Of a stretch of DNA of 64,000 nt, positions 14,941 to 64,000 are shown piece after piece; within the stretch, counting starts at the first letter, position 1, and each line of letters begins with the position of its first letter. Under the pieces are notes generated by a model, which made no database searches, was not told the origin of the DNA, and worked only from the letters and a program-made list of their open reading frames with translations. A program made the translations under genes and the position numbers. This DNA is from Promethearchaeota archaeon (GTDB lineage: Archaea > Asgardarchaeota > Lokiarchaeia > Sigyniarchaeales > SOKP01), in NCBI GenBank assembly GCA_019894975.1, contig JAGXNO010000003.1:64001-128000 (forward strand). The letters are read 5' to 3'.

Positions 14941-17900
14941 CTATAAACCGTTTTTAACTTCCTCCTTTTCTAATAAATAAGAATCAATCATTGTGTTAAT
15001 TTGATCAAAATCATAGTGTTTTACCATAATAGCTCCAACAGGGCATGTAGCGGCGCATGTTCCGCATCCTTTACATACAGCAGCGTTAATGGATGATTTT
15101 GGTACAATAATACTAATATCTTCGAATTCTTTAGTTATTTCTATAAGACTAATAGCTTTATAGGGACATATATCCTCACATTTTCCACATCCGATACATT
15201 TTTCTTCCAAAACTTCAGCAACTAATCCAGAAGTTGTAATTTTATCTGAGCTTAGGAATCTACTTGCTCTACCTGCAGCTCCATTAGCTTGTGAAATTGA
15301 ATCCTGTAAATTTTTTGGCCATTGTGCACACCCACATAAGAATATTCCATCTGTAGCAAAATCTAAAGGTCTTAATTTAACATGTGCTTCTAAAAAGAAT
15401 CCATTCTTATCTAATGGAACTTTCAACATCATAGCTAATTCTTTTAGATTATCGGAAGGAATCATTGGTGTTGAAAGTATTAATAAATCTGTTTCAAATT
15501 CGACAGTATCTTTTAAATTTGTATCATATACTTTTAACTGATATTTTTCAGGACTTCCCTCACTCTTTGTCACCTCAGGAAGCTTATCTAAGTCGTATCT
15601 GAGAAAAATTGCGTCCTTTCGACGTTCACGGTAGTATTCCTCAAATTCTTTCTTAGCCATCTGTAGATCTCTGTAAATTACAACAACTTCTAATTCGGGT
15701 TTCAATTCTTTTAAGATTCTAACATTTTTTAGTGAAGTAGCGCAGCAAATATTAGAACAGTAAGTTATGCCTTCATTCTGACGAGCATTAACACATAATA
15801 TTATTGTTACTCGATTAATTTGGTCTAACCATGAGTTATCCTTATTTTGCAACTTCTGTTCTAATTCTAATTGAGTCATAATATTTTCATTCTTTTCTTG
15901 ATATCCAAAAAGACCTGTTGGTTTGAGTTCTTGTCCTCCGGTAGCGACAATAATGGTTCCAATTTTTACATTGTGGGATTCGTTATTTGAATCTTTAATT
16001 ACTACATCATAATTCCCTACATATCCTTTAATGTCTTCAAATTTAGCATTAAGAAATACTTGAATGTGGTTGTGCTTCTCAATTTTTTCCTTTGTTTCAT
16101 TTAATAATTCTAACGCATTTTTATGAACAGGATATAATACATTAAGAAATCTTAAATTCCCCCCTAATTCACTGTCTTTCTCTACAATAATAGTTTTAAA
16201 TCCCTGATTTGCGGTATTTAAAGCTGCAGTCATCCCAGATATACCTCCCCCAATAACTAATGATGTGTGAGTAATATCAACTTTCTCTTCTTTCTGAGGT
16301 TTCAATAATCTGGATTTAGCAATATGCATTCTGATTAAATCTTTAGATTTCTCTGTAGCAGCTTCTTTTTCCGTCATATGAACCCAGGAACACTGATCTC
16401 TGATATTTACTAGTTCAAATAAATATTTATTTAATCCTGCTTCTTGACAGGTTTCTTGAAATAACGATTCATGAGTTCTTGGGGTACAAGAAGCTACAAT
16501 AAACCTGTTTAAATTGTGTTCAGCAATTAATTCCTTAATTCTAATTTGAGAATCTGAAGAACAGGAATAAAGATTACTTTCACATACTACAACATTTGGA
16601 AGGCCTTTTACATATTCTACAACCCTAGGAACATCTACATAATTTCCTATATTTATCCCACAGTGACAGACCATAACACCGATTCTTGGCTCATCTGTAA
16701 TTTTTATTACTTTTTCAGGAACATCAAACACTTTTTCCTTCATAAGAGTGTATTTAACAGAACTTAGCAAATCTGCTATTTGGGCTGCTACTCCACTGGC
16801 ATCTGCAACTGTTTCAGGAATATCCATTGGTCCCTGACAGAATCCACATAAGTACACTCCCTCTCTTGTAGATTTTAGTTTATCAAAATAAGAAGCTTCT
16901 TGGAAAAAATCATATTTATCCAACCCAATGTCTAAAGCTTTTCCTAATTCTTTAACACCCTTAGATGGAACAAGCGGTGATGCTAACACTACAAGGTTTG
17001 CTCTAAAATCTTTGAATTCCCCCGTTTTAAGATCTTCATATCTTAAAATTAAATCATTAGTTTCAAGATCTTCTTCAATTGTACTTATCTTAGACTGAAA
17101 GTATTTTACCCCATATTCTTCTTGGGCTCTTTGAATAAATTCATAAAAGTTTTTACCGTAAGCTCGTATATCGTGCCGAAATACATAACAATCTGAATTA
17201 TCTGAATGTTCTTGAGTGATAATTGCTTGTTTTGCTGTATAAGTGCAACAAACGCTTGAACAAAAAGGTACATTTTCATGAAGATCTCGAGAACCCGCAC
17301 ACTGGACAAAAGCAATTACTTCAGGTTCCTTACCATCACTTAATCGCTTTACATGACCCTCAAATGGTCCAGATGCACATAAAATCCTTTCATATTCAAG
17401 TGCACTTACAACATTCTCGAATCGATACCCCCATCTAGAGGATAACTCTTCAGCAGGCATTTCATATCCCGTTGCGACTACTACAGCACCAATATTAATT
17501 TCAAATTCTTCAGGTTTCTGTTCAAAGTCTATTGCATCCGCAGTACAAACTTTTTTGCATACTTGACAGACTCCCTTCTTTAAATATAGACACATCTCTG
17601 AATCAATTAAGTAGATAGGAGGTACTGCTTGAGGAAAAGGAATATACACTGATTTTATTTTCCCAATATTCATTTCAAAAGGATTTGGAGCTAAAATTTT
17701 TGGACATTTATTTGCACAATCCCCACATCCCTTACATTTAGTTTCATCAACATATCGAGGTTTTTTCAAAATTTTTGCTGTAAAATCCCCTGGCTGGCCT
17801 TCAAGTTGAAGAACTTCATGATAAGTCATCAATTCAACATTAGGATTGCGAAAGACTTCAACCATTTTGGGAGCAAGGATACATAGTGAACAGTCCAAAG

Positions 17901-18048
17901 TAGGGAAAGTCTTATCTAATTGAGCCATCCTTCCTCCAATCGAAGGAGATTTTTCCACTAAATAGACTTTAAATCCTAGTTCTGTAAGATCAAGAGATAT
18001 CTGAATTCCAGCTATTCCTCCTCCAATTACCAAAACTGAACCTTCCAT
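14941..18048 (-). CDS. hdrA: Large tandem HdrA-like flavoprotein (two FAD modules, multiple Fe-S)
   Basis: Two GGGIxG Rossmann motifs, LDKTFPTLDCSLC, CHCGINI...SCTPRTHE...RDQCSWVH, C-terminal 2x[4Fe-4S]. Confidence 0.93.
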   Translation of the reverse strand: MEGSVLVIGGGIAGIQISLDLTELGFKVYLVEKSPSIGGRMAQLDKTFPTLDCSLCILAPKMVEVFRNPNVELMTYHEVLQLEGQPGDFTAKILKKPRYVDETKCKGCGDCANKCPKILAPNPFEMNIGKIKSVYIPFPQAVPPIYLIDSEMCLYLKKGVCQVCKKVCTADAIDFEQKPEEFEINIGAVVVATGYEMPAEELSSRWGYRFENVVSALEYERILCASGPFEGHVKRLSDGKEPEVIAFVQCAGSRDLHENVPFCSSVCCTYTAKQAIITQEHSDNSDCYVFRHDIRAYGKNFYEFIQRAQEEYGVKYFQSKISTIEEDLETNDLILRYEDLKTGEFKDFRANLVVLASPLVPSKGVKELGKALDIGLDKYDFFQEASYFDKLKSTREGVYLCGFCQGPMDIPETVADASGVAAQIADLLSSVKYTLMKEKVFDVPEKVIKITDEPRIGVMVCHCGINIGNYVDVPRVVEYVKGLPNVVVCESNLYSCSSDSQIRIKELIAEHNLNRFIVASCTPRTHESLFQETCQEAGLNKYLFELVNIRDQCSWVHMTEKEAATEKSKDLIRMHIAKSRLLKPQKEEKVDITHTSLVIGGGISGMTAALNTANQGFKTIIVEKDSELGGNLRFLNVLYPVHKNALELLNETKEKIEKHNHIQVFLNAKFEDIKGYVGNYDVVIKDSNNESHNVKIGTIIVATGGQELKPTGLFGYQEKNENIMTQLELEQKLQNKDNSWLDQINRVTIILCVNARQNEGITYCSNICCATSLKNVRILKELKPELEVVVIYRDLQMAKKEFEEYYRERRKDAIFLRYDLDKLPEVTKSEGSPEKYQLKVYDTNLKDTVEFETDLLILSTPMIPSDNLKELAMMLKVPLDKNGFFLEAHVKLRPLDFATDGIFLCGCAQWPKNLQDSISQANGAAGRASRFLSSDKITTSGLVAEVLEEKCIGCGKCEDICPYKAISLIEITKEFEDISIIVPKSSINAAVCKGCGTCAATCPVGAIMVKHYDFDQINTMIDSYLLEKEEVKNGL

Positions 18049-55817: not shown

Positions 55818-56091
55818 CTAATCACCTATCTGGTTAATTCTCTTTAAGTTTAATAGAAAATAATTAGCTTAGTTAAATTAAGTATTTATCGTTATTTATC
55901 AAAAATAATTTAATTCTAATAAGTTTTTTGAATCTTACAGATGTTTAAAGAAGCATTATGCTTTTTAACAATAATTGGATTGAAATTTGAACTTATATAA
56001 GATTAACATATTATATAAAAATCTTGTAGGATACTAGGTTTTTGTAAGTCTAGATTTGGATTTAATCTATCATTTTATTTATATTATAATT

Positions 56092-57231
56092 ATGATTAGT
56101 ATTGACACCGCTTTCAAACAAAAAACAAAATTACTATGCAGTGGGCTATATCTGAATGAGACCTTAATCGATCATTGTAAAACTCAAGGAATTCAGATTG
56201 ATTATGGTAGGAAAGGAGGAGCAGGTCCTTCTGGAGGAAGATATTTCCTATTAGAAGATGGACTTACATTAGTAAACGTTGCACTCTGGAATAATCCGAA
56301 CACCACTGATTTGTTTTTAAAAGAAAACAGGAATGGATATTTCGAAGTTTATAATGAGGGGAGTAATCAGTTATTTGGGAAACTAAAGCTTATCCAAAAT
56401 CCTCTTTTTTATAATCCAAAATATCTTACGTCCGATGGAATTCCAATGAAAAAAATTGCTTTAGTACATGGAGTTGATTGCCTTTCTAGTACAATTTATC
56501 AAAAATGTGTCTACTGGGCGTGTGGAGAAGCGTGTTCCTTCTGCGGAATTGAAGTAAGCTTACAAAATGATGCAACACTCGAAGAAAAAAATGCTAAGCA
56601 GATGTCAGAAGTTATCACTGCAGCTAAAAAAGAGGGACGATGCAATCACATGACTTTAACAAGTGGTACAGATGAATCTAAAGATAAGGGGGCAAAAAGA
56701 TATATTGAAATATTACAAGGAATAAAGAAGAACTATAATGATCTCCCATTACATGTTCAGATTGAAGCTTTAGAAGATTTAGAATATATTAACAAATTAA
56801 AAGAAGCAGGAGCAGATACTATTGGAATTCACATTGAAGTTCTTAATGAGCAATTGAGAAGAGACATTACACCGGGAAAATTTCATCTTTCTTATCAACT
56901 TTTTGAAGAAAATTGGAAACATGCTATTGAAGTGTTTGGTCAAAATCAAGTGAGTAGCTATGTTTTGACTGGATTAGGGGAAAAAAAAGCTGATTTTCTT
57001 AAAGATGTAGAAAAACTTGTTTCAGTGGGAGTCATTCCATATATAACACCAGTTAGATCTATCCCCGGAAAACATAATTTACCTTTAACGGATTATAATG
57101 TATTGTTGGAGGTATATCAAAGAACTGGTGAATTGATGAAGGAGTATGGGCTTAATCCATTAAAAAACAAAGCAGGATGTGTTCGTTGTGGGGGTTGCTC
57201 AGCTATCAAAGAAGCATATAGAGTAGCTTAA
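56092..57231 (+). CDS. Radical SAM protein, MSMEG_0568-like
   Basis: GRKGGAGPSG, STIYQKCVYWACGEACSFCGI (CxxxxxxxxCxxC variant), TPGK, C-terminal AGCVRCGGCS. Confidence 0.8.
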   Translation: MISIDTAFKQKTKLLCSGLYLNETLIDHCKTQGIQIDYGRKGGAGPSGGRYFLLEDGLTLVNVALWNNPNTTDLFLKENRNGYFEVYNEGSNQLFGKLKLIQNPLFYNPKYLTSDGIPMKKIALVHGVDCLSSTIYQKCVYWACGEACSFCGIEVSLQNDATLEEKNAKQMSEVITAAKKEGRCNHMTLTSGTDESKDKGAKRYIEILQGIKKNYNDLPLHVQIEALEDLEYINKLKEAGADTIGIHIEVLNEQLRRDITPGKFHLSYQLFEENWKHAIEVFGQNQVSSYVLTGLGEKKADFLKDVEKLVSVGVIPYITPVRSIPGKHNLPLTDYNVLLEVYQRTGELMKEYGLNPLKNKAGCVRCGGCSAIKEAYRVA

Positions 57232-57479: not shown

Positions 57480-58412
57480 ATGATAGAATTGATGTTTAAA
57501 ATTGGATCCCCATTAGTTTTATTGATACTTCTTATAATTATTCTAATTAGCGGAAGGTCAAATAGAAGAGCAGAACAAGAATTCATGTCTAGTGATGATT
57601 TTATAAAAGATTGGCTAAAAGATCACGGGCAAGCTCGTAAGGTGGAAGAACAATTAGCTAAAATGAAGAAGGATCCCGCAGGTCGAGTATATATGCCATT
57701 AACTTATAAAGGTGCAAAAATCTTTATAAAATGGGGTTTAAGCCCCAATAAAGTATCTATTATGAATTTGTTATTTTCATTCTTGATATTTTATGGTGTG
57801 GTATTAGTGGGCCAAGGACATACGCTAGACATTCTTACTCAACAACCAATCTATGGATTCTGGCTTGTTCCTCTTGCCTTATTAGTTTTATTTACGGGAT
57901 TGATCGATGGAATTGATGGTGCTATAGCAAGATTACTAGATACAAAGTCTAAAAGTGGAGCGTGGTTCGATAATATAATAGATAGAGTTAGTGATACATT
58001 AATGTTGGTATGTTTAATTCCAACTAACCTTTCAATCTTATCTGGCAGTGGGTACGATTTCAAATGGGTGATTTGGACGAACATATTTATAATCTTCCTC
58101 TATGAATATATGAGAGCTAGACATGAGGGTTTAGGTTTACATGAAACCAAGCCATTTGTTGGGGAAAGAGTAACAAGAATATCAATAATCTGTACATTTT
58201 TTGCAATTTATGGGGTTTCAAGCCTTGCAGTACTCATTACAAATTTAATTAATCCCGATACCGCGTCAATCTGGGAATCTTCCCATACAGGAATAACTAC
58301 ATGGTGTATGTTCATTTTTCAAATCACTTTGTTACTTATTATGCTATATTCCGTAATAGGATTTGGAAAATATATCTGGAAAAACCTAAAAAAAATGGAT
58401 AACGAAAACTAG
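57480..58412 (+). CDS. CDP-alcohol phosphatidyltransferase family
   Basis: SPNKVS and DGIDGAIAR...SKSGAWFDNIIDRVSD signature. Confidence 0.92.
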   Translation: MIELMFKIGSPLVLLILLIIILISGRSNRRAEQEFMSSDDFIKDWLKDHGQARKVEEQLAKMKKDPAGRVYMPLTYKGAKIFIKWGLSPNKVSIMNLLFSFLIFYGVVLVGQGHTLDILTQQPIYGFWLVPLALLVLFTGLIDGIDGAIARLLDTKSKSGAWFDNIIDRVSDTLMLVCLIPTNLSILSGSGYDFKWVIWTNIFIIFLYEYMRARHEGLGLHETKPFVGERVTRISIICTFFAIYGVSSLAVLITNLINPDTASIWESSHTGITTWCMFIFQITLLLIMLYSVIGFGKYIWKNLKKMDNEN

Positions 58413-58428
58413 ATATGAGATATAAATA

Positions 58429-59781
58429 ATGAAATTATCAAAACTTCTATTATATGGATCTATATGTGTAGTATTTTTTGTTCTCTTACACATGTATCTC
58501 CCACCAATTTTTTCATCAGGTGTGAAAAGAGCTATTGATCGATTTATTCTTGATCCCTTAACTAATTGGTTATTTGTATTTCCCCTATTCGGCTTAATAA
58601 TGTTACTAGGATTTGTAATTTATTATATGATTCATTTCTTAGCATCTTTTGGGAGAGGATATAAAGTTAAGAACGAATATAACGCGAAGGTTAGTATATT
58701 AATCGCATCTAAAAATGAAAAGATACTATTGGAAAGAACATTAAATTCTATCCTTAAATCAACTTATCCAAAGGAGAATATCCAGATAATCATAATAACA
58801 AGCGGATCAACAGATGATACAACAGAATTTTCAAAAAACTTTGCTAAAGAAAATAATATGATAGATATCGAGGTTTTATCGGAAAATCTTCCTAAAATGG
58901 GAAAGCCTCCAGCCTTAAATTATGGATTAAAATATGTAAAAAATGATATCGTTGTACTCTATGATTCTGGATGCATTTTAGAGCCAAAAGCTCTTAGTAA
59001 TTTGATAGCACCATTTCAAGATGACAAGATTAAGGCAGTCATTGGACCCGTTTTGGTAGAAAATTGGAAGATAAACAAATTAACTCGAGGGATTTATCTT
59101 GATTACGCTATGATTTCTGGTGGAGGTATCTCATTCGAGATTAAAAATCGGTTAGGATCGTCTGCTTATGCATTTGGGAGAAATTTTGCAGTAACTACTA
59201 AGCAACTTCTAAAATATGGAGGTTTTAATGAAGATTCAATGACAGAGGATCTTTATCTTTCGGTATTACTAAATTTAGATGGGATTAACATATTTTTTTC
59301 ACCAAAAGCAAGAGTTTTTGAATATGTGCCCACTAAATGGAAAATATTAGTAAAGCAACGTACGCGATGGCTTGCAGGATATGTTTTTGATATGCCACAA
59401 TTAATGTCTATGAAAGGCGAAGAAAAAAGCGGAAAATCAATTATTATCTCAAGAAATATGACAATGATGCTTATTGGAAATTTAGATACGTGGATCCCTA
59501 TTGTAATAGGATTTGCAATATTACAATTTCTAACTGGAGAGTGGTATTTATTAACTTGGACCCTCTCCTGTTTAATCTTTCAATTTGGGTTCTTATTTAA
59601 TGCTGTGCGTAAATATGGTGATGGTCATTATAGTATTTTGTTCTTTTTTCTCGTTAGCGCATTTATCCATCTTTATATGTTTTTACGACAGTTCCGACTT
59701 CCAAAGGAGATCAGTTGGGAAAAAACTCCCATGATTTTAGAAAAACAAGAAGATGAAATTAAAGCTCTATCAGGTAAATAA
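58429..59781 (+). CDS. Membrane GT2 glycosyltransferase (processive type)
   Basis: GSTD, GKPPALN, YDS, TED and QRTRW (QxxRW) motifs; flanking TM segments. Confidence 0.9.
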   Translation: MKLSKLLLYGSICVVFFVLLHMYLPPIFSSGVKRAIDRFILDPLTNWLFVFPLFGLIMLLGFVIYYMIHFLASFGRGYKVKNEYNAKVSILIASKNEKILLERTLNSILKSTYPKENIQIIIITSGSTDDTTEFSKNFAKENNMIDIEVLSENLPKMGKPPALNYGLKYVKNDIVVLYDSGCILEPKALSNLIAPFQDDKIKAVIGPVLVENWKINKLTRGIYLDYAMISGGGISFEIKNRLGSSAYAFGRNFAVTTKQLLKYGGFNEDSMTEDLYLSVLLNLDGINIFFSPKARVFEYVPTKWKILVKQRTRWLAGYVFDMPQLMSMKGEEKSGKSIIISRNMTMMLIGNLDTWIPIVIGFAILQFLTGEWYLLTWTLSCLIFQFGFLFNAVRKYGDGHYSILFFFLVSAFIHLYMFLRQFRLPKEISWEKTPMILEKQEDEIKALSGK

Positions 59782-59836: not shown

Positions 59837-61135
59837 ATGTTAAAGTTGAAAGATCACCTACCCGACGAGCTAAGAACAAAATATTTTGATTTTGAATCTC
59901 GTGACTACTCTGATGATAAATTTTGTAACGATTTGTTGGATCAATTAAAATTATCTTATAAAAATTGTAATTATTTTAAGGAAAAGCTCTGTAAGAAATT
60001 CGAGTTTGCTATTCCTGATGAGTTAACCGTTGAAGATTTAGATAAAATCCCATTTATTCCAACAGAAGCTTATAAAAAATCAGCAAACAGAACTCTTCTG
60101 TTACTGAAAGTTCCCCTTGATGATATCACGCTTTTTTCTTGTTCATCTTCTACTACTGGAGATCCTTCGATTGTACCTCGGTCATTGGAAGATTTTGATC
60201 AAATACAATATAATTCAATTAAAGTCTTCACAGAATTTTTTGATTGGAAGGATCTAAAAGTAGGCTCGAAGAGATGCTTAGTGTTCAACTTTGCTCCAGA
60301 TCGCTTTTTCATGTCATTAATGGCTAAACGGACTTTAAAAGAATTTGAATACGTTGACAAAACTCGTTATTTTACAGCATGCATGAACAAACCCTGGGAA
60401 TATTATGGACATGAAGAATATATGGTAAAATTTAAACTTTTAAAAACAATTTGGGCAATAATTTCAACGTTTTCAGTAAGAGGAGGTTTTATTTTAGACG
60501 TTAGTAAAATGTTAAAGATGGTGAGCAAAATTTTAAAGAAAGGGTCTTGGAAAGACACAGAGGTGAGTAGAATTATATTTGGTGGAAGTCCTCTTTTAAT
60601 GAATAATATGTTTGAGAAACGGTTGCTAAAAGAAAATGAATTCTTTGATCTTGATGGAAAATCTTTTGTTGGCTGTGGTGGTGGAGGATGGGATGGTATT
60701 AAAGGTGAAGCGAAGATGGATCGAGTGAATAAAGTTAAATTTATTGAAAATTATGAAAAAGTCTTTAATATTAAACCAAAAAATATCTCCGATATTTATG
60801 CATTCACCGAAGGACCAACTCTTTTTGGAGGACATTGGTCTGAGAAATATCAAGATTTTTTACTACACTGTCCTGATACTTCTCGAATAATTGTAAGGGA
60901 TCTTGAAAATTTAGAAGCTGTTAATAATGGAGAAGAAGGACTATTAGAAGTTCTTACACCTTATGGGGTTAATGGTACAATTAATCAAGCGGTTTTAGTT
61001 GATGATATTGTAGACTTAATCTCACAAACGAAGTGTCCAGAGTGTGGTTATGAAGGAGCTACCTTTCGGATAATAGGGAGACTAAAAAATGCTCAAGGAA
61101 AAAGCTGTTCTTCTTTGATTGATTGGATCTATTAA
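59837..61135 (+). CDS. LuxE-like acyl-protein synthetase (adenylate-forming)
   Basis: IPFIP, SSSTTGDPS, GGGGW, YAFTE, GLLEVLTP and CPECG..G..FRIIGR...CS motifs. Confidence 0.75.
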   Translation: MLKLKDHLPDELRTKYFDFESRDYSDDKFCNDLLDQLKLSYKNCNYFKEKLCKKFEFAIPDELTVEDLDKIPFIPTEAYKKSANRTLLLLKVPLDDITLFSCSSSTTGDPSIVPRSLEDFDQIQYNSIKVFTEFFDWKDLKVGSKRCLVFNFAPDRFFMSLMAKRTLKEFEYVDKTRYFTACMNKPWEYYGHEEYMVKFKLLKTIWAIISTFSVRGGFILDVSKMLKMVSKILKKGSWKDTEVSRIIFGGSPLLMNNMFEKRLLKENEFFDLDGKSFVGCGGGGWDGIKGEAKMDRVNKVKFIENYEKVFNIKPKNISDIYAFTEGPTLFGGHWSEKYQDFLLHCPDTSRIIVRDLENLEAVNNGEEGLLEVLTPYGVNGTINQAVLVDDIVDLISQTKCPECGYEGATFRIIGRLKNAQGKSCSSLIDWIY

Positions 61136-61203: not shown

Positions 61204-62610
61204 TTATTCATCTACAAGTCCATATTTTGAAAGTCCTTTTCTCATATCAGCTTGAAAAGCCCCAGGAGTCCCTTCTATGAACGCGTTAGTTATATCTTGA
61301 TTCTCAACAATAGTTGAAGCTCTTTTATTTGCTTTCTCTTCGGCAAGTGATGAAATTGCCATTCTTGCCATCTGTTGAAACTGAGGGGGTGATAACTCAA
61401 TAAGAGCTTCAAAAATTTCCTTTGTCTCGCTATCCCAATCTAGCCCGGATTTTTTAAGTTCCTTTGGTTTAGCTGATTCGAGCCCAAATTCACGACTGGT
61501 CACAATATCATCCATATACTCTTTTAATGATACCACATATCTTTGAGATTCTTCACTGTTTAGCTTTACTGCTTTTTTTGCCCATTCTTCACAATAATTA
61601 CATTCATTACACATTGCTAAGCAGTTTTGCTTCTTAAAAAAGTCTATGAACCCATCCAATTTGGTGTTGTCAATTATTAGTTTAGATTTTGATTCTTCAC
61701 CAATTGTTTCAGTTAATTTCACATTGGGGTCTTTTTGTTCTAAACCCCCAAAAGACATTGAGAATCCTTGAATTATATCTATAAGATTTCCATCGTACTT
61801 TCGCGAAGAGAAAGCTTTTACAGATCTAGCAATCCATTGGGTTGACATACGGCGACCAGCTATTTTAAAATTATCTATTCCAATCGCTTCATAATGAGAC
61901 AAATCTTCAGGTCGAACCCATCTTGCTTTGATAACTTCAGTAGGATCAGAGAATTTGATAATACTACAGTTTAAGATGCACGTATCAATATAGTTACGCT
62001 CAAATTGTTGATGTGTTTGTGAAGCGTGTCCTAAGGTATTATAATGATATTGTCTAAAGGGACATTGATATAAACACCCATCAGTTAAAAGTACAATAAT
62101 CTTACACTTCACAGCTTTTTTTATTTGTTCCAATGTCTTAAAATCACGATTTATCATCACTCCAAGAGTAATTTCATCTGCTCCTAGGTTTTCATAAAAC
62201 ATAGCTCGATTAACACTATTCACGTGAGCAATTGTAGAGACACGTATTTTTAGTTTTGGAAATTGTTCTTTAATGAGTTGTATTAAAAATGGAATCGATA
62301 CTGTCACGCTATCGGCTCCGATATCACTAATCCATTGTAGATATTTAAGTAATTCTTTATGATAATGTGGATCATATTCCATATTATTCATACATGGTGC
62401 ATTAAGGAGATAAGAAAATTCCATATCTTTATCATGAACTTTCCTTATATAATCCGCGATATCTTCTTCGGATATTTGCTGCAATAAAAAAGACGGACGA
62501 CCCCCTCCTACAATTGTGTGATCTGAAACACCATATACCCCAGATACAGGATACTGAGCCAACTCATCAATTAGTGTTAAATCCCAATTTGTAGCAACAT
62601 GAAGTTTTAT
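61204..62610 (-). CDS. U32-family Fe-S protein (UbiU/V-, RlhA-like) with C-terminal PCP_red/DUF2621-like domain; probable ATA start
   Basis: KLHVATNWD, GGGRP, YLLNAPC, GCLYQCPF, RWVRPEDL, FKIAGR, CNECNYC; ATA 62610 follows GGTGAG SD and an in-frame TAG. Confidence 0.8.
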   Translation of the reverse strand: MKLHVATNWDLTLIDELAQYPVSGVYGVSDHTIVGGGRPSFLLQQISEEDIADYIRKVHDKDMEFSYLLNAPCMNNMEYDPHYHKELLKYLQWISDIGADSVTVSIPFLIQLIKEQFPKLKIRVSTIAHVNSVNRAMFYENLGADEITLGVMINRDFKTLEQIKKAVKCKIIVLLTDGCLYQCPFRQYHYNTLGHASQTHQQFERNYIDTCILNCSIIKFSDPTEVIKARWVRPEDLSHYEAIGIDNFKIAGRRMSTQWIARSVKAFSSRKYDGNLIDIIQGFSMSFGGLEQKDPNVKLTETIGEESKSKLIIDNTKLDGFIDFFKKQNCLAMCNECNYCEEWAKKAVKLNSEESQRYVVSLKEYMDDIVTSREFGLESAKPKELKKSGLDWDSETKEIFEALIELSPPQFQQMARMAISSLAEEKANKRASTIVENQDITNAFIEGTPGAFQADMRKGLSKYGLVDE

Positions 62611-62627
62611 CTATCTCACCTTGTTTT

Positions 62628-63017
62628 TTATTTTTGGATAGCTTTTTCATGAGCTTTGGCATTAAGTGGCAATAATGGCGCACATGCCATAAGCTTAGTA
62701 GGATCACCATCAACATCATATGTTCCAGCCATTGTTGCTTCAATAGGATTTGTTTCTCCCGAATTTACCTTTTTAATAACTTCGAAATTCGTTTTATGAA
62801 TAACTTTTGGCACATCAGGTCCACTATATTCGCCCATTCCCCAACTCATTTTATTTTCTTCGATCGATTGCCAATAGTCCATCTCTGGACGATCTTTAAT
62901 TTTATATTGAAAAACTAACGGTGCGATGGGTTTCAATAGAACTGCTAAATCGGGCAATTCGTTATAGGCTTTCATGAAGCTATCAAGATATGCTTCCCAT
63001 TCTTCCTTTGTATCCAT
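62628..63017 (-). CDS. SCP2 sterol/lipid-carrier domain protein
   Basis: SGETNPIEATMAGTYDVDGD C-terminal SCP2 signature; ATG 63017 after GGAGGT. Confidence 0.8.
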   Translation of the reverse strand: MDTKEEWEAYLDSFMKAYNELPDLAVLLKPIAPLVFQYKIKDRPEMDYWQSIEENKMSWGMGEYSGPDVPKVIHKTNFEVIKKVNSGETNPIEATMAGTYDVDGDPTKLMACAPLLPLNAKAHEKAIQK

Positions 63018-63078
63018 TTTATCTTTTACCTCCTTTTTTTGGTTTATTATTTTTTTGATTTTATCTATTAGAAAAAAA

Positions 63079-63999
63079 TTATTTTGAAAATTCAAGTCCT
63101 GCTTTGGCACCCATCAATAAGAAATCTACCATAGTCCCATTATAATCATTTTCGATCTTATAATAAAGACTATCTGGTGTGAAAGTTACTCCATAAATAA
63201 ACTTATGAACATCACTTTGGAAGGGAGATTCCTTAGTAAATTTTTGTATTAATGGATGTAGATGCACTGGAACTTCTTTACCATTATGGCATGTCATACC
63301 AAAACACAATCGTTCGATTTTTTCAGAATCCCAACTAAAGCTATAATTAAGGTGTACAGCATTACAACAATATTTCAATATTTCTTCTGATGGAACTTTG
63401 AAACCTAAATCTTCTATAAGCCTTTTACACTTATCAACACTTGTTTTAGAGGGATCCTTTAACATAAAATAGATATTCGTCGTGTTATGTGAGAAATCAA
63501 AAGCAAACAGCGCTAGTGTAGTCAATCCATGCTTTTTGAAATAATTCTCATACTTTTTAATACTTTCTGGTGCAAAATTCATAGAAAAAAGTGGATCAAT
63601 TGAACCTGGTATTATAAAAGGCCATATCTTTGAGAATCCTTTTCTTGCATCTATATCTACACCATAACCCATAATATCAAATGTATCCAATGCTTCTACG
63701 ATCATTTTATGAATTGGATGACCATTTTTTTCAATCAATCCTTCCATGACAGCTATTGTATATGGATCAGGATTATGAGGGATCATCATTTCTACATATC
63801 TTACAGATACATCTCTTTTTTCGACCGGTTTTGTGGTGGTTCTAATTGATAAAGATGATCCTAAATAGAACTTTTTATAAGCATTTAGTCCTTTCCAAAT
63901 AGCTTCTTCATTAAAATTCACTTCGGTAAGTTTGCAGAGAGTATGGATATCATTAACCATCTGATGCAGATCATTTGTGAGCTTAAAATCAGAATTCAC
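63079..63999 (-). CDS. ABBA-family aromatic prenyltransferase (NphB/CloQ-like)
   Basis: DPYTIAV.EGL..NGHP, YGVD....GFSKIW.F, FKKHGL, D......NIYF, LGF.VP, SWDSEKIERLCF and YGVTF...YYKIE match recalled NphB/CloQ motifs; start lies at the window edge. Confidence 0.8.
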   Translation of the reverse strand: MNSDFKLTNDLHQMVNDIHTLCKLTEVNFNEEAIWKGLNAYKKFYLGSSLSIRTTTKPVEKRDVSVRYVEMMIPHNPDPYTIAVMEGLIEKNGHPIHKMIVEALDTFDIMGYGVDIDARKGFSKIWPFIIPGSIDPLFSMNFAPESIKKYENYFKKHGLTTLALFAFDFSHNTTNIYFMLKDPSKTSVDKCKRLIEDLGFKVPSEEILKYCCNAVHLNYSFSWDSEKIERLCFGMTCHNGKEVPVHLHPLIQKFTKESPFQSDVHKFIYGVTFTPDSLYYKIENDYNGTMVDFLLMGAKAGLEFSK

Positions 64000-64000
64000 T

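Follow-up and report, generated by a model that had tools for sequence, protein, structure and literature searches.

The window analysed here is a stretch of 64,000 nucleotides (nt) from a Promethearchaeota archaeon (assembly GCA_019894975.1, contig JAGXNO010000003.1, positions 64,001 to 128,000), at the end of which (61204-64000) three co-oriented minus-strand open reading frames (ORFs) encode a prenyltransferase of the ABBA (PT-barrel) type, an SCP2 carrier and a Cys-rich U32 protein of divergent sequence. In family and fold the first of these is an ABBA/PT-barrel aromatic prenyltransferase, and the three genes form the 3' end of an eight-gene operon which is accessory and patchily inherited within one family of Loki-type Asgard archaea. 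The chances are about even that this operon attaches a prenyl group to a greasy and probably aromatic small molecule and then modifies the molecule further without O2, the product being an accessory membrane-associated meroterpenoid or phenolic lipid and not a housekeeping respiratory quinone.

The contig extends 17 kb beyond the window end, and the upstream genes were read on stretch L003. The operon covers about 9.7 kb of the minus strand with gaps of -4 to 148 nt between its genes (61 nt between the prenyltransferase and SCP2, 17 nt between SCP2 and U32), and its 5' border is marked by a divergent gene. From 5' to 3' the genes encode a B12-binding radical S-adenosylmethionine (SAM) enzyme, a membrane protein, two radical SAM/SPASM enzymes, a second B12-binding radical SAM enzyme, the prenyltransferase, the SCP2 carrier and the U32 protein (Table 1). 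A sequence-only reading of the window had picked out the last three as a closely spaced trio, which is confirmed by their Pfam matches to PTase_Orf2, SCP2 and Peptidase_U32, and had rightly suspected that the operon runs past the window, where five further minus-strand genes lie upstream of the prenyltransferase. The three-gene module that it proposed gives way to a unit of eight genes, of which four are for radical SAM enzymes and one is for a membrane protein. Scanning for bacterial-type promoters and terminators, a type of scan ill-suited to archaea, gave counts equal to those of shuffled sequences, and no description of the cluster was found in the literature searched.

The prenyltransferase

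The full-length prenyltransferase has 390 amino acids (aa) and an ATG start 251 nt past the window end, so that residues 1-85, which make up an extra N-terminal helical domain, are encoded beyond the window. The protein matches Pfam PTase_Orf2 (PF11468) with 180.5 bits (E 6e-53) over profile positions 3-283 of 287. The PT-barrel fold on which the sequence-only reading depended is present in the AlphaFold2 (AF2) model (pLDDT 90.6, pTM 0.86), where helices alternate with strand pairs, and Foldseek returns AmbP3, FamD1 and AmbP1 as top matches (27-30% identity, TM 0.83-0.92 when normalised to the target), followed by EpzP with 26-27% identity and by NphB and CloQ with about 20%. A profile of the prenyltransferase searched against Protein Data Bank (PDB) sequences produces the same ranking, with 184 bits for FamD1, 177 for EpzP, 121 for NphB and 64 for CloQ. 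The peptide prenyltransferases PagF and LimF (E about 1e-5) and the DMATS enzymes are distant structural matches only. Eight residues are invariant (R137, R151, K208, N259, Y261, R314, K365 and Y370), and the invariant basic, Asn and Tyr columns sit in motifs common to FamD1 and AmbP.

To our knowledge, every characterised ABBA prenyltransferase takes aromatic acceptors. The Asgard enzyme shares its Pfam family and fold with AmbP1, AmbP3 and FamD1 of cyanobacterial indole alkaloid synthesis, with EpzP (phenazine), with NphB/Orf2 (naphterpin) and with CloQ (clorobiocin), but differs from them in its archaeal host and in the added N-terminal 85-aa module, which resembles DUF2621. Its setting is likewise different, being an operon of radical SAM, U32 and SCP2 genes and not a cluster for polyketides, phenazines or aminocoumarins. 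A complex prediction for the prenyltransferase with SCP2 scored 0.00, which gives no verdict and counts neither way.

The U32 protein and the SCP2 carrier

In the U32 protein a TIM-barrel core is combined with two Cys clusters and, at the C-terminus, with a helical module. Its match to Pfam Peptidase_U32 (PF01136) amounts to 57 bits and covers profile positions 2-86 of 233 only, and it can be aligned with canonical U32 proteins only over residues ~34-165. The best Foldseek match of its AF2 model (pLDDT 83.8) is the U32 protein Mk0906 (5d88) with an E of 5e-11, followed by generic TIM barrels. Eight of its 10 Cys are invariant in the subfamily and fall into two sets, C73, C179, C183 and C215 on the one hand and C330, C334, C337 and C340 on the other; the first set is also kept in two paralogue groups of relatives and resembles the UbiV pattern of one far-upstream Cys plus three.

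The sequence-only reading made its proposal dependent on the U32 protein not being an RNA hydroxylase of the TrhP/RlhA kind, and it groups with neither. BLAST aligns it with TrhP at 27% identity over 123 aa (E 9e-8) and with UbiU at E 0.26, the NCBIfam TrhP model reaches 31.9 bits where its cut-off is 534, and none of the NCBIfam models for UbiU, UbiV and RlhA matched. In a tree built from the cluster-type U32 proteins, three canonical U32 genes of the same genome and UbiU, UbiV, TrhP and RlhA of Escherichia coli, all cluster-type paralogues fall into one clade with 100/99 support apart from the three canonical genes and the four E. coli proteins; given the small sampling and long branches, this tree says that they stand outside the four characterised subfamilies and nothing finer. 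The three canonical genes (G000 C150:116-793, C11:32458-33132 and C112:10121-10801) score ~262 bits to PF01136, carry the usual Cys motif and lie nearest to E. coli RlhA in the small tree; to judge by these sequences a role as RNA hydroxylases is probable.

The conserved N-terminus of the U32 protein reaches back to an ATA codon at 62610, right after an in-frame TAG and the sequence GGTGA, which gives a product of 468 aa; an alternative TTG start at 62562 would give 452 aa. The ATA (62608-62610, minus strand) precedes the conserved segment KLHVATNWD, and orthologues likewise start with ATA or ATT in four genomes (L028, L023, L030 and L041) and with GTG or ATG elsewhere. These reading frames suggest that near-cognate AUA or AUU codons may serve for initiation in this lineage.

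The SCP2 carrier probably starts at the ATG at 63017, which is preceded by GGAGGT, rather than at the GTG at 63110, and the product then has 129 aa. Its own score against Pfam SCP2 (PF02036) is marginal (22.4 bits against a cut-off of 21.3), and the profile is matched by 18 of 19 orthologues and paralogues with a best E of 2e-7. Among PDB sequences its best match is an SCP2 protein at E 0.52. The free protein is 76-82% identical to the C-terminal domain of a 683-aa fusion protein of relatives, in which a U32 domain, the helical module and SCP2 follow one another. On its profile matches and those of its relatives, the window protein belongs to the SCP2 family and has a predicted SCP2 fold.

A helical module in four proteins of the operon

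An alignment reveals a helical module of ~80 aa which is common to four proteins of the operon, namely the prenyltransferase (first 85 residues), both SPASM enzymes (first ~85) and the U32 protein (last ~80). When a profile of the module was run with hmmsearch against a six-frame translation of the whole genome, exactly these four proteins were found. Pfam DUF2621 scores 14-25 bits against the copies, the U32 copy reaching 25.2 bits, with a cut-off of 27.7. The module forms five helices in the prenyltransferase model (pLDDT 81-91), and its look-alikes in an Atlas search are small DUF2621/PCP_red proteins of anaerobic bacteria, with scores at lead level only. Nothing significant was found with the profile among PDB sequences (best E 0.26), and DUF2621 is not mentioned in the literature searched.

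Among 1.84 billion representatives the module profile finds 307 proteins at E <=1e-3, many of which are stand-alone proteins of 80-100 aa. Outside Asgard archaea the module is fused to PTase_Orf2 (at either end), to SCP2, to U32 plus SCP2, to a class I methyltransferase, to an HpaB-like protein, to a plain radical SAM enzyme and to a LuxC-radical SAM/SPASM protein, and the fusion with a prenyltransferase also occurs alone in bacteria. Examples of non-Asgard fusions are P0305, P0345, P0362, P0384, P0258, P0307 and P0356, and the stand-alone form is common in anaerobic bacteria. Two analogies may be drawn, with the recognition elements of peptides that are ribosomally synthesised and then modified post-translationally (RiPPs) and with the UbiJ-centred Ubi metabolon, where one small non-catalytic domain or SCP2 protein ties unrelated pathway enzymes to a shared substrate or carrier; the Asgard module differs from RiPP recognition elements in being all-helical and akin to DUF2621/PCP_red, whereas they have a PqqD-like fold. 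In uncultured anaerobic bacteria the module also occurs on methyltransferases, on fusions of LuxC with radical SAM and on SCP2 proteins, and it may be a general adaptor for pathways with greasy intermediates.

Radical SAM enzymes and membrane protein

All four radical SAM enzymes contain the CX3CX2C motif, which is located at C120 in each of the SPASM enzymes, at C219 in one B12 enzyme and at C211 in the other, and their SPASM or B12-binding domains are confirmed by Pfam. The nearest named families of both SPASM enzymes are AhbD, NirJ and AhbC (115-139 bits), then MftC and PqqE; the radical SAM core and SPASM domain are shared with all of these (104-139 bits). Unlike them, the Asgard enzymes have neither tetrapyrrole genes nor a peptide precursor nearby and carry the helical module at the N-terminus, where a RiPP recognition element or nothing is usual. 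The best scores of one B12 enzyme are those with TIGR04072 'lipid biosynthesis B12/rSAM' (268 bits) and BzaD, and the best of the other is with the Ta0216 family. Two more B12-binding radical SAM genes lie at the contig end (L003 15096-16556, minus strand, and 16715-17920, plus strand), and similar distant paralogues are found beside the cluster in L019, L030, L041 and L043.

The 227-aa ORF that encodes the membrane protein is a real gene with orthologues at the equivalent position in 13 loci. Its N-terminal part is conserved and consists of two or three hydrophobic helices with several polar invariant residues, and its C-terminal tail is of low complexity and not conserved. The protein has no Pfam match, and an Atlas search gave noise-level matches only (<=0.77).

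Gene order, variants and distribution

Homologue searches yielded 121 prenyltransferases, almost all of 388-390 aa, and 559 U32 proteins, and gene order was compared over 20 loci drawn from metagenome contigs and the genomes of relatives. The operon keeps the order given above in more than 15 loci from at least six genera, with one of two endings before the final U32 gene: either a free SCP2, as in the window, or a U32-like gene of 384-389 aa and a U32-module-SCP2 gene of ~683 aa, which in these long variants overlap by 4 nt. The window operon has a single cluster-type U32 and its relatives have two or three. The order prenyltransferase, SCP2, U32 recurs in several genera (L019, L022, L027 and L028), SCP2 is also adjacent to U32 in L040, L041 and L043, and it is fused to a U32 paralogue in L004, L021, L023, L024, L025, L030 and L045; some loci have a third SPASM enzyme with a C-terminal SCP2 domain. 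The arrangement of the trio is not due to chance, and the joint conservation on which the sequence-only reading relied is found in all 19 genomes with the prenyltransferase, each of which also has the U32 protein, and in the recurrence of the order across genera.

Reduced variants encode a B12-binding radical SAM enzyme, the membrane protein, a SPASM enzyme, SCP2 and U32 (L040 and L043), or the membrane protein, SCP2, U32 and a B12-binding radical SAM enzyme (L041), or U32 alone (L038 and L042). Because the variants that lack the prenyltransferase keep the membrane protein, SCP2 and U32, these three make up the core, to which the prenyltransferase, the second SPASM enzyme and the extra U32 paralogues are, on comparison of the loci, add-ons. 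A second, paralogous cluster without B12 enzymes is present in G030 and G186 (L024 7547-16947 and L025 3996-12153) in the order membrane protein, SPASM, prenyltransferase, U32-like, U32-module-SCP2, SPASM, after which G030 adds a second prenyltransferase.

Distribution was sampled in 301 genomes of the phylum by counting full-length prenyltransferase matches. The prenyltransferase occurs in 19 of them and the U32 protein in 25, and these positive genomes all belong to one class; 22 of the 25 fall into the family of the window, where 22 of 68 other genomes are positive. The cluster was not found in the remaining 230 genomes of the phylum searched. A spread across all Asgard archaea, as implied by NCBI labels such as Thor-, Odin-, Hod-, Heimdall- and Hermodarchaeota, was rejected, as G204 (labelled Heimdallarchaeota) and G057 (Hodarchaeota) belong to the window's family in GTDB. 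The NCBI organism labels on homologous proteins of metagenome-assembled genomes conflict with GTDB placement and are an unreliable guide.

Related gene clusters are found outside Asgard. A contig of an uncultured bacterium (L048, 1-15271) encodes four B12-binding radical SAM enzymes, three U32 proteins (one of them a fusion with the module and SCP2), an aldehyde:ferredoxin oxidoreductase (AFOR) and an alpha/beta hydrolase. Another (L047, 3774-23315) encodes four B12-binding radical SAM enzymes, an unfused DUF2621 protein, a protein of 1104 aa that combines SCP2 domains with the module, two AFORs, a cupin, an amidohydrolase and an SRPBCC protein. L046 has LuxE, LuxC and a fusion of LuxC, module and radical SAM/SPASM, and in L049 a module-tagged methyltransferase lies amid HpaB, a decarboxylase-type amidohydrolase, HemN-like enzymes, a P450 and a halogenase, which together make up an aromatic-tailoring cluster. 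The non-Asgard clusters imply that the association of U32, SCP2, the module and B12-binding radical SAM enzymes is older and wider than the Asgard operon.

Proposed function and alternatives

Tailoring of a prenylated aromatic lipid without O2 is the best model for the operon because ABBA enzymes take aromatic acceptors, known U32 proteins hydroxylate rings without O2 and the genome has chorismate synthase and chorismate mutase. The fusions of SCP2 to U32 and SPASM proteins suggest that a hydrophobic intermediate is handed between enzymes. In the proposed sequence of events the soluble PT-barrel enzyme would transfer a prenyl group to an aromatic acceptor, and the SCP2 pocket would hold the greasy intermediate while the U32 Fe-S enzyme might hydroxylate the ring without O2; by analogy with UbiU/UbiV the oxygen donor could be prephenate, which the genome is equipped to make. 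The two B12-binding radical SAM enzymes would add C-methyl groups, and the two AhbD/NirJ-like SPASM enzymes may carry out an oxidative decarboxylation or another C-C or C-H transformation. The DUF2621-like module could act as a common adaptor that brings the prenyltransferase, U32 and both SPASM enzymes to one carrier, membrane protein or substrate. Of the O2-free prenyl-aromatic pathway put forward in the sequence-only reading, the tailoring of a prenylated aromatic stands as the best model; the unit of three genes does not, and the U32 and SCP2 proteins are not orthologues of UbiU, UbiV and UbiT.

U32 proteins of known role carry out the O2-independent hydroxylation of aromatic or heteroaromatic rings (PMC10990095), and UbiU and UbiV do so together with the SCP2 protein UbiT and with prephenate as oxygen donor (PMC6747719, PMC10990095). 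The UbiT-UbiU-UbiV system of Proteobacteria resembles the Asgard operon in that a U32 protein is coupled to SCP2, and the natural UbiT-UbiU fusion reported in Zymomonas has a counterpart in the 683-aa Asgard fusion (PMC6747719, PMC10990095). The overlapping, adjacent U32 paralogues of the long Asgard variants recall the UbiU-UbiV heterodimer which works with UbiT (PMC6747719). Both systems have an anaerobic setting, and the Asgard genome is prephenate-capable. The two systems also differ: the Asgard U32 protein belongs to a separate deep clade with a second cluster, CX3CX2CX2C, and a helical module, the window operon has one U32 and not two paralogues, and its genes lie, in an archaeon, alongside those for four radical SAM enzymes and a soluble ABBA prenyltransferase, whereas UbiT, UbiU and UbiV sit with the Ubi pathway.

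Several findings weigh against the preferred reading. The canonical U32 motif of four Cys, CX6CX15CX3/4C (PMC6747719), is not present, as the CX6C segment is missing and only the CX3C half aligns. This gap and the high divergence of the protein make a hydroxylase chemistry for it an extrapolation, and the U32 protein is no closer to UbiU/UbiV, to which the sequence-only reading had likened it, than to the RNA hydroxylases. For SCP2, BLASTP detects no sequence similarity to E. coli UbiT (E 15). The radical SAM scores all lie far below the curated cut-offs (265-650 for AhbD, AhbC, NirJ, MftC and PqqE), so that the reaction types assigned to these enzymes are guesses. There is no aromatic-ring-making gene in or beside the cluster. 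Finally, the prenyltransferase is absent from the clusters of L040, L041 and L043, and the independence of the SCP2/U32 core from it means that the substrate may be an already existing lipid.

This last point leads to an alternative in which the operon tailors an existing non-aromatic membrane lipid of the archaeol, tetraether or polyprenol type. SCP2 would extract the lipid, U32 would hydroxylate it, the B12-binding radical SAM enzymes would methylate it and the SPASM enzymes would cross-link or cyclise its isoprenoid chains, with head groups added by the neighbouring CDP-alcohol transferase and family-2 glycosyltransferase (GT2) and prenylation as a late, optional decoration. Such a role would account for the reduced variants that keep the membrane protein, SCP2 and U32, with or without a B12 enzyme, for the fusion of SCP2 domains to several enzymes, for the recurrence of the CDP-alcohol transferase and GT2 on either side of the cluster and for the best match of one B12 enzyme to TIGR04072. 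We know of no ABBA prenyltransferase that acts on aliphatic lipids, however, and the CDP-alcohol transferase is found in 10 sampled genomes without the cluster, often on another contig. Tes reaches only 58 bits against the SPASM enzymes, below AhbD and NirJ, and the known substrates of U32 proteins are all aromatic rings, which the proposed mechanism needs (PMC10990095). Lipid tailoring is therefore judged unlikely, although it survives better than the readings that follow.

Less probable again is an O2-independent route, in analogy to anaerobic ubiquinone synthesis, to a quinone or quinol-like electron carrier of the membrane, in which an SCP2-bound intermediate would be prenylated, decarboxylated, hydroxylated and C-methylated. 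The reactions suggested for the enzymes map onto quinone biosynthesis (a prenyltransferase, decarboxylase-like relatives of AhbD and MftC, up to three U32 proteins and methylases), and the pairing of U32 with SCP2 parallels UbiU/V with UbiT, fusion included (PMC6747719). Moreover, MqnA and MqnD of the futalosine pathway were not found in the 95%-complete genome, so that the known menaquinone route would not be duplicated; taken together with the generic quinone-related homologues of the genome, five UbiA-family genes and one UbiD, their absence neither supports nor excludes a quinone. The patchy distribution, with three of 23 sampled genomes of the window's genus (two of 22 others), about a third of the family and none of the 230 other sampled genomes positive, argues against a core respiratory carrier, and the paralogous second copies in G030 and G186, with two prenyltransferases in G030, look like the diversification of a secondary metabolite. 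The cluster contains no known quinone-pathway (Ubi or Men) gene, no O-methyltransferase and no ring-precursor enzyme, its U32 and SCP2 proteins are not orthologues of UbiU/V and UbiT, and variants without the prenyltransferase exist. The fullest form of the idea, a new O2-independent route to a prenylated, C-methylated and hydroxylated aromatic lipid which serves as a quinol-like redox carrier and is assembled on SCP2 with a DUF2621-type docking domain and a deep new branch of U32 enzymes, is similarly doubtful.

It is improbable that the cluster encodes a catabolic or transformation pathway, in which the set of U32, SCP2 and B12-binding radical SAM proteins would attack a hydrophobic compound from outside, be it aromatic or isoprenoid, independently of O2. 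The bacterial look-alikes L048 and L047, which may represent a related, perhaps catabolic, oxygen-free pathway without a prenyltransferase, have a degradative appearance with their hydrolase, AFOR, up to three U32 proteins and four B12-binding radical SAM enzymes, but the Asgard cluster holds a prenyltransferase, which is a biosynthetic enzyme, lacks AFOR, hydrolase and transporter genes and has lipid head-group enzymes as recurrent neighbours.

Many RiPP maturases combine a small N-terminal domain with a radical SAM and a SPASM domain, and one domain spread across unrelated enzymes is a hallmark of RiPP recognition. The module might accordingly be a leader-recognition element on SPASM maturases, prenyltransferase and hydroxylase, and the weaker SPASM matches include several peptide maturases besides MftC and PqqE. 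The 227-aa ORF, the one unassigned ORF of the operon, and the Zn-ribbon paralogues beside the cluster were aligned as precursor candidates and rejected, both being membrane proteins. No conserved short ORF or other precursor candidate was found, the cluster has neither peptidase nor transporter, the shared domain is DUF2621-like and not PqqD-like, SCP2 fusions point to a lipid, and PagF and LimF are distant matches of the prenyltransferase; RiPP maturation is accordingly very unlikely. Least probable of all is the tailoring of a tetrapyrrole-type cofactor, for which AhbD, NirJ and AhbC as best SPASM matches, BchE among the B12 enzyme matches and the relation of the module to PCP_red, the C-terminal domain of protochlorophyllide reductase subunit B, can be cited, but every score falls well short of the family cut-off, a search of PDB sequences with the module profile returns no BchB/ChlB and we know of no role of SCP2 or ABBA prenyltransferases with tetrapyrroles.

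If the prenylated-aromatic reading is correct, prephenate-type, O2-independent hydroxylation by U32 with an SCP2 carrier would be extended beyond the ubiquinone synthesis of Proteobacteria, to archaea and a new class of substrate, and the operon would represent the first ABBA prenyltransferase pathway in Archaea, as far as the literature searched shows. It would also point to a membrane-associated metabolite, not described so far, of the lineage closest to eukaryotes; the physiological weight of the cluster may be modest because it is accessory.

Features of the locus and its surroundings

Table 1. Genes of the operon and of its downstream side. Coordinates refer to the window unless preceded by L003.
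Feature	Length	Coordinates	Strand	Basis and remarks
B12-binding radical SAM enzyme	491 aa	L003 6425-7900	minus	Pfam; outside window
Membrane protein	227 aa	L003 5594-6277	minus	ORF without Pfam match; outside window
Radical SAM/SPASM enzyme	459 aa	L003 4144-5523	minus	Pfam; outside window
Radical SAM/SPASM enzyme	469 aa	L003 2738-4147	minus	Pfam; outside window
B12-binding radical SAM enzyme	471 aa	L003 1307-2722	minus	Pfam; outside window
Prenyltransferase		63079..64000; full gene L003 80-1252	minus	PTase_Orf2; cut by window end
SCP2 carrier	129 aa	62628..63017	minus	Pfam SCP2
Divergent U32 protein	468 aa	61204..62610	minus	Pfam PF01136
C-terminal helical module of U32	~80 aa	61207..61455	minus	DUF2621-like
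LuxE-like adenylate-forming enzyme		59837-61135	plus	Pfam; convergent to U32
GT2		58429-59781	plus	Pfam; convergent to U32
CDP-alcohol phosphatidyltransferase		57480-58412	plus	Pfam; convergent to U32
Radical SAM enzyme, MSMEG_0568 family		56056-57231	plus	TIGR04043 275 bits, cut-off 304; upstream of CDP-alcohol transferase

The set of CDP-alcohol transferase, GT2 and LuxE-like genes adjoins the cluster on either side in L019, L021, L027, L028, L030, L041 and L043. An orthologue of the CDP-alcohol transferase occurs in 34 of the 301 genomes, 23 of which are among the 25 with the U32 protein and 10 of which lack the cluster, and in several cases it lies on another contig. It was therefore rejected as an obligate part of the cluster and is better described as a frequent neighbour.

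One to four paralogous genes for a protein with an N-terminal Zn-ribbon and, after it, two or three transmembrane helices flank the cluster in several genomes (L003 8027-8524, plus strand; L021, L023 and L028). A second LuxE-like paralogue is located on the far side of the operon (L003 11719-12909, minus strand), where it adjoins genes for a UDP-galactopyranose mutase, a GT2, a hexapeptide transferase, a polysaccharide deacetylase and a sulfotransferase in what is a glycan-type neighbourhood.

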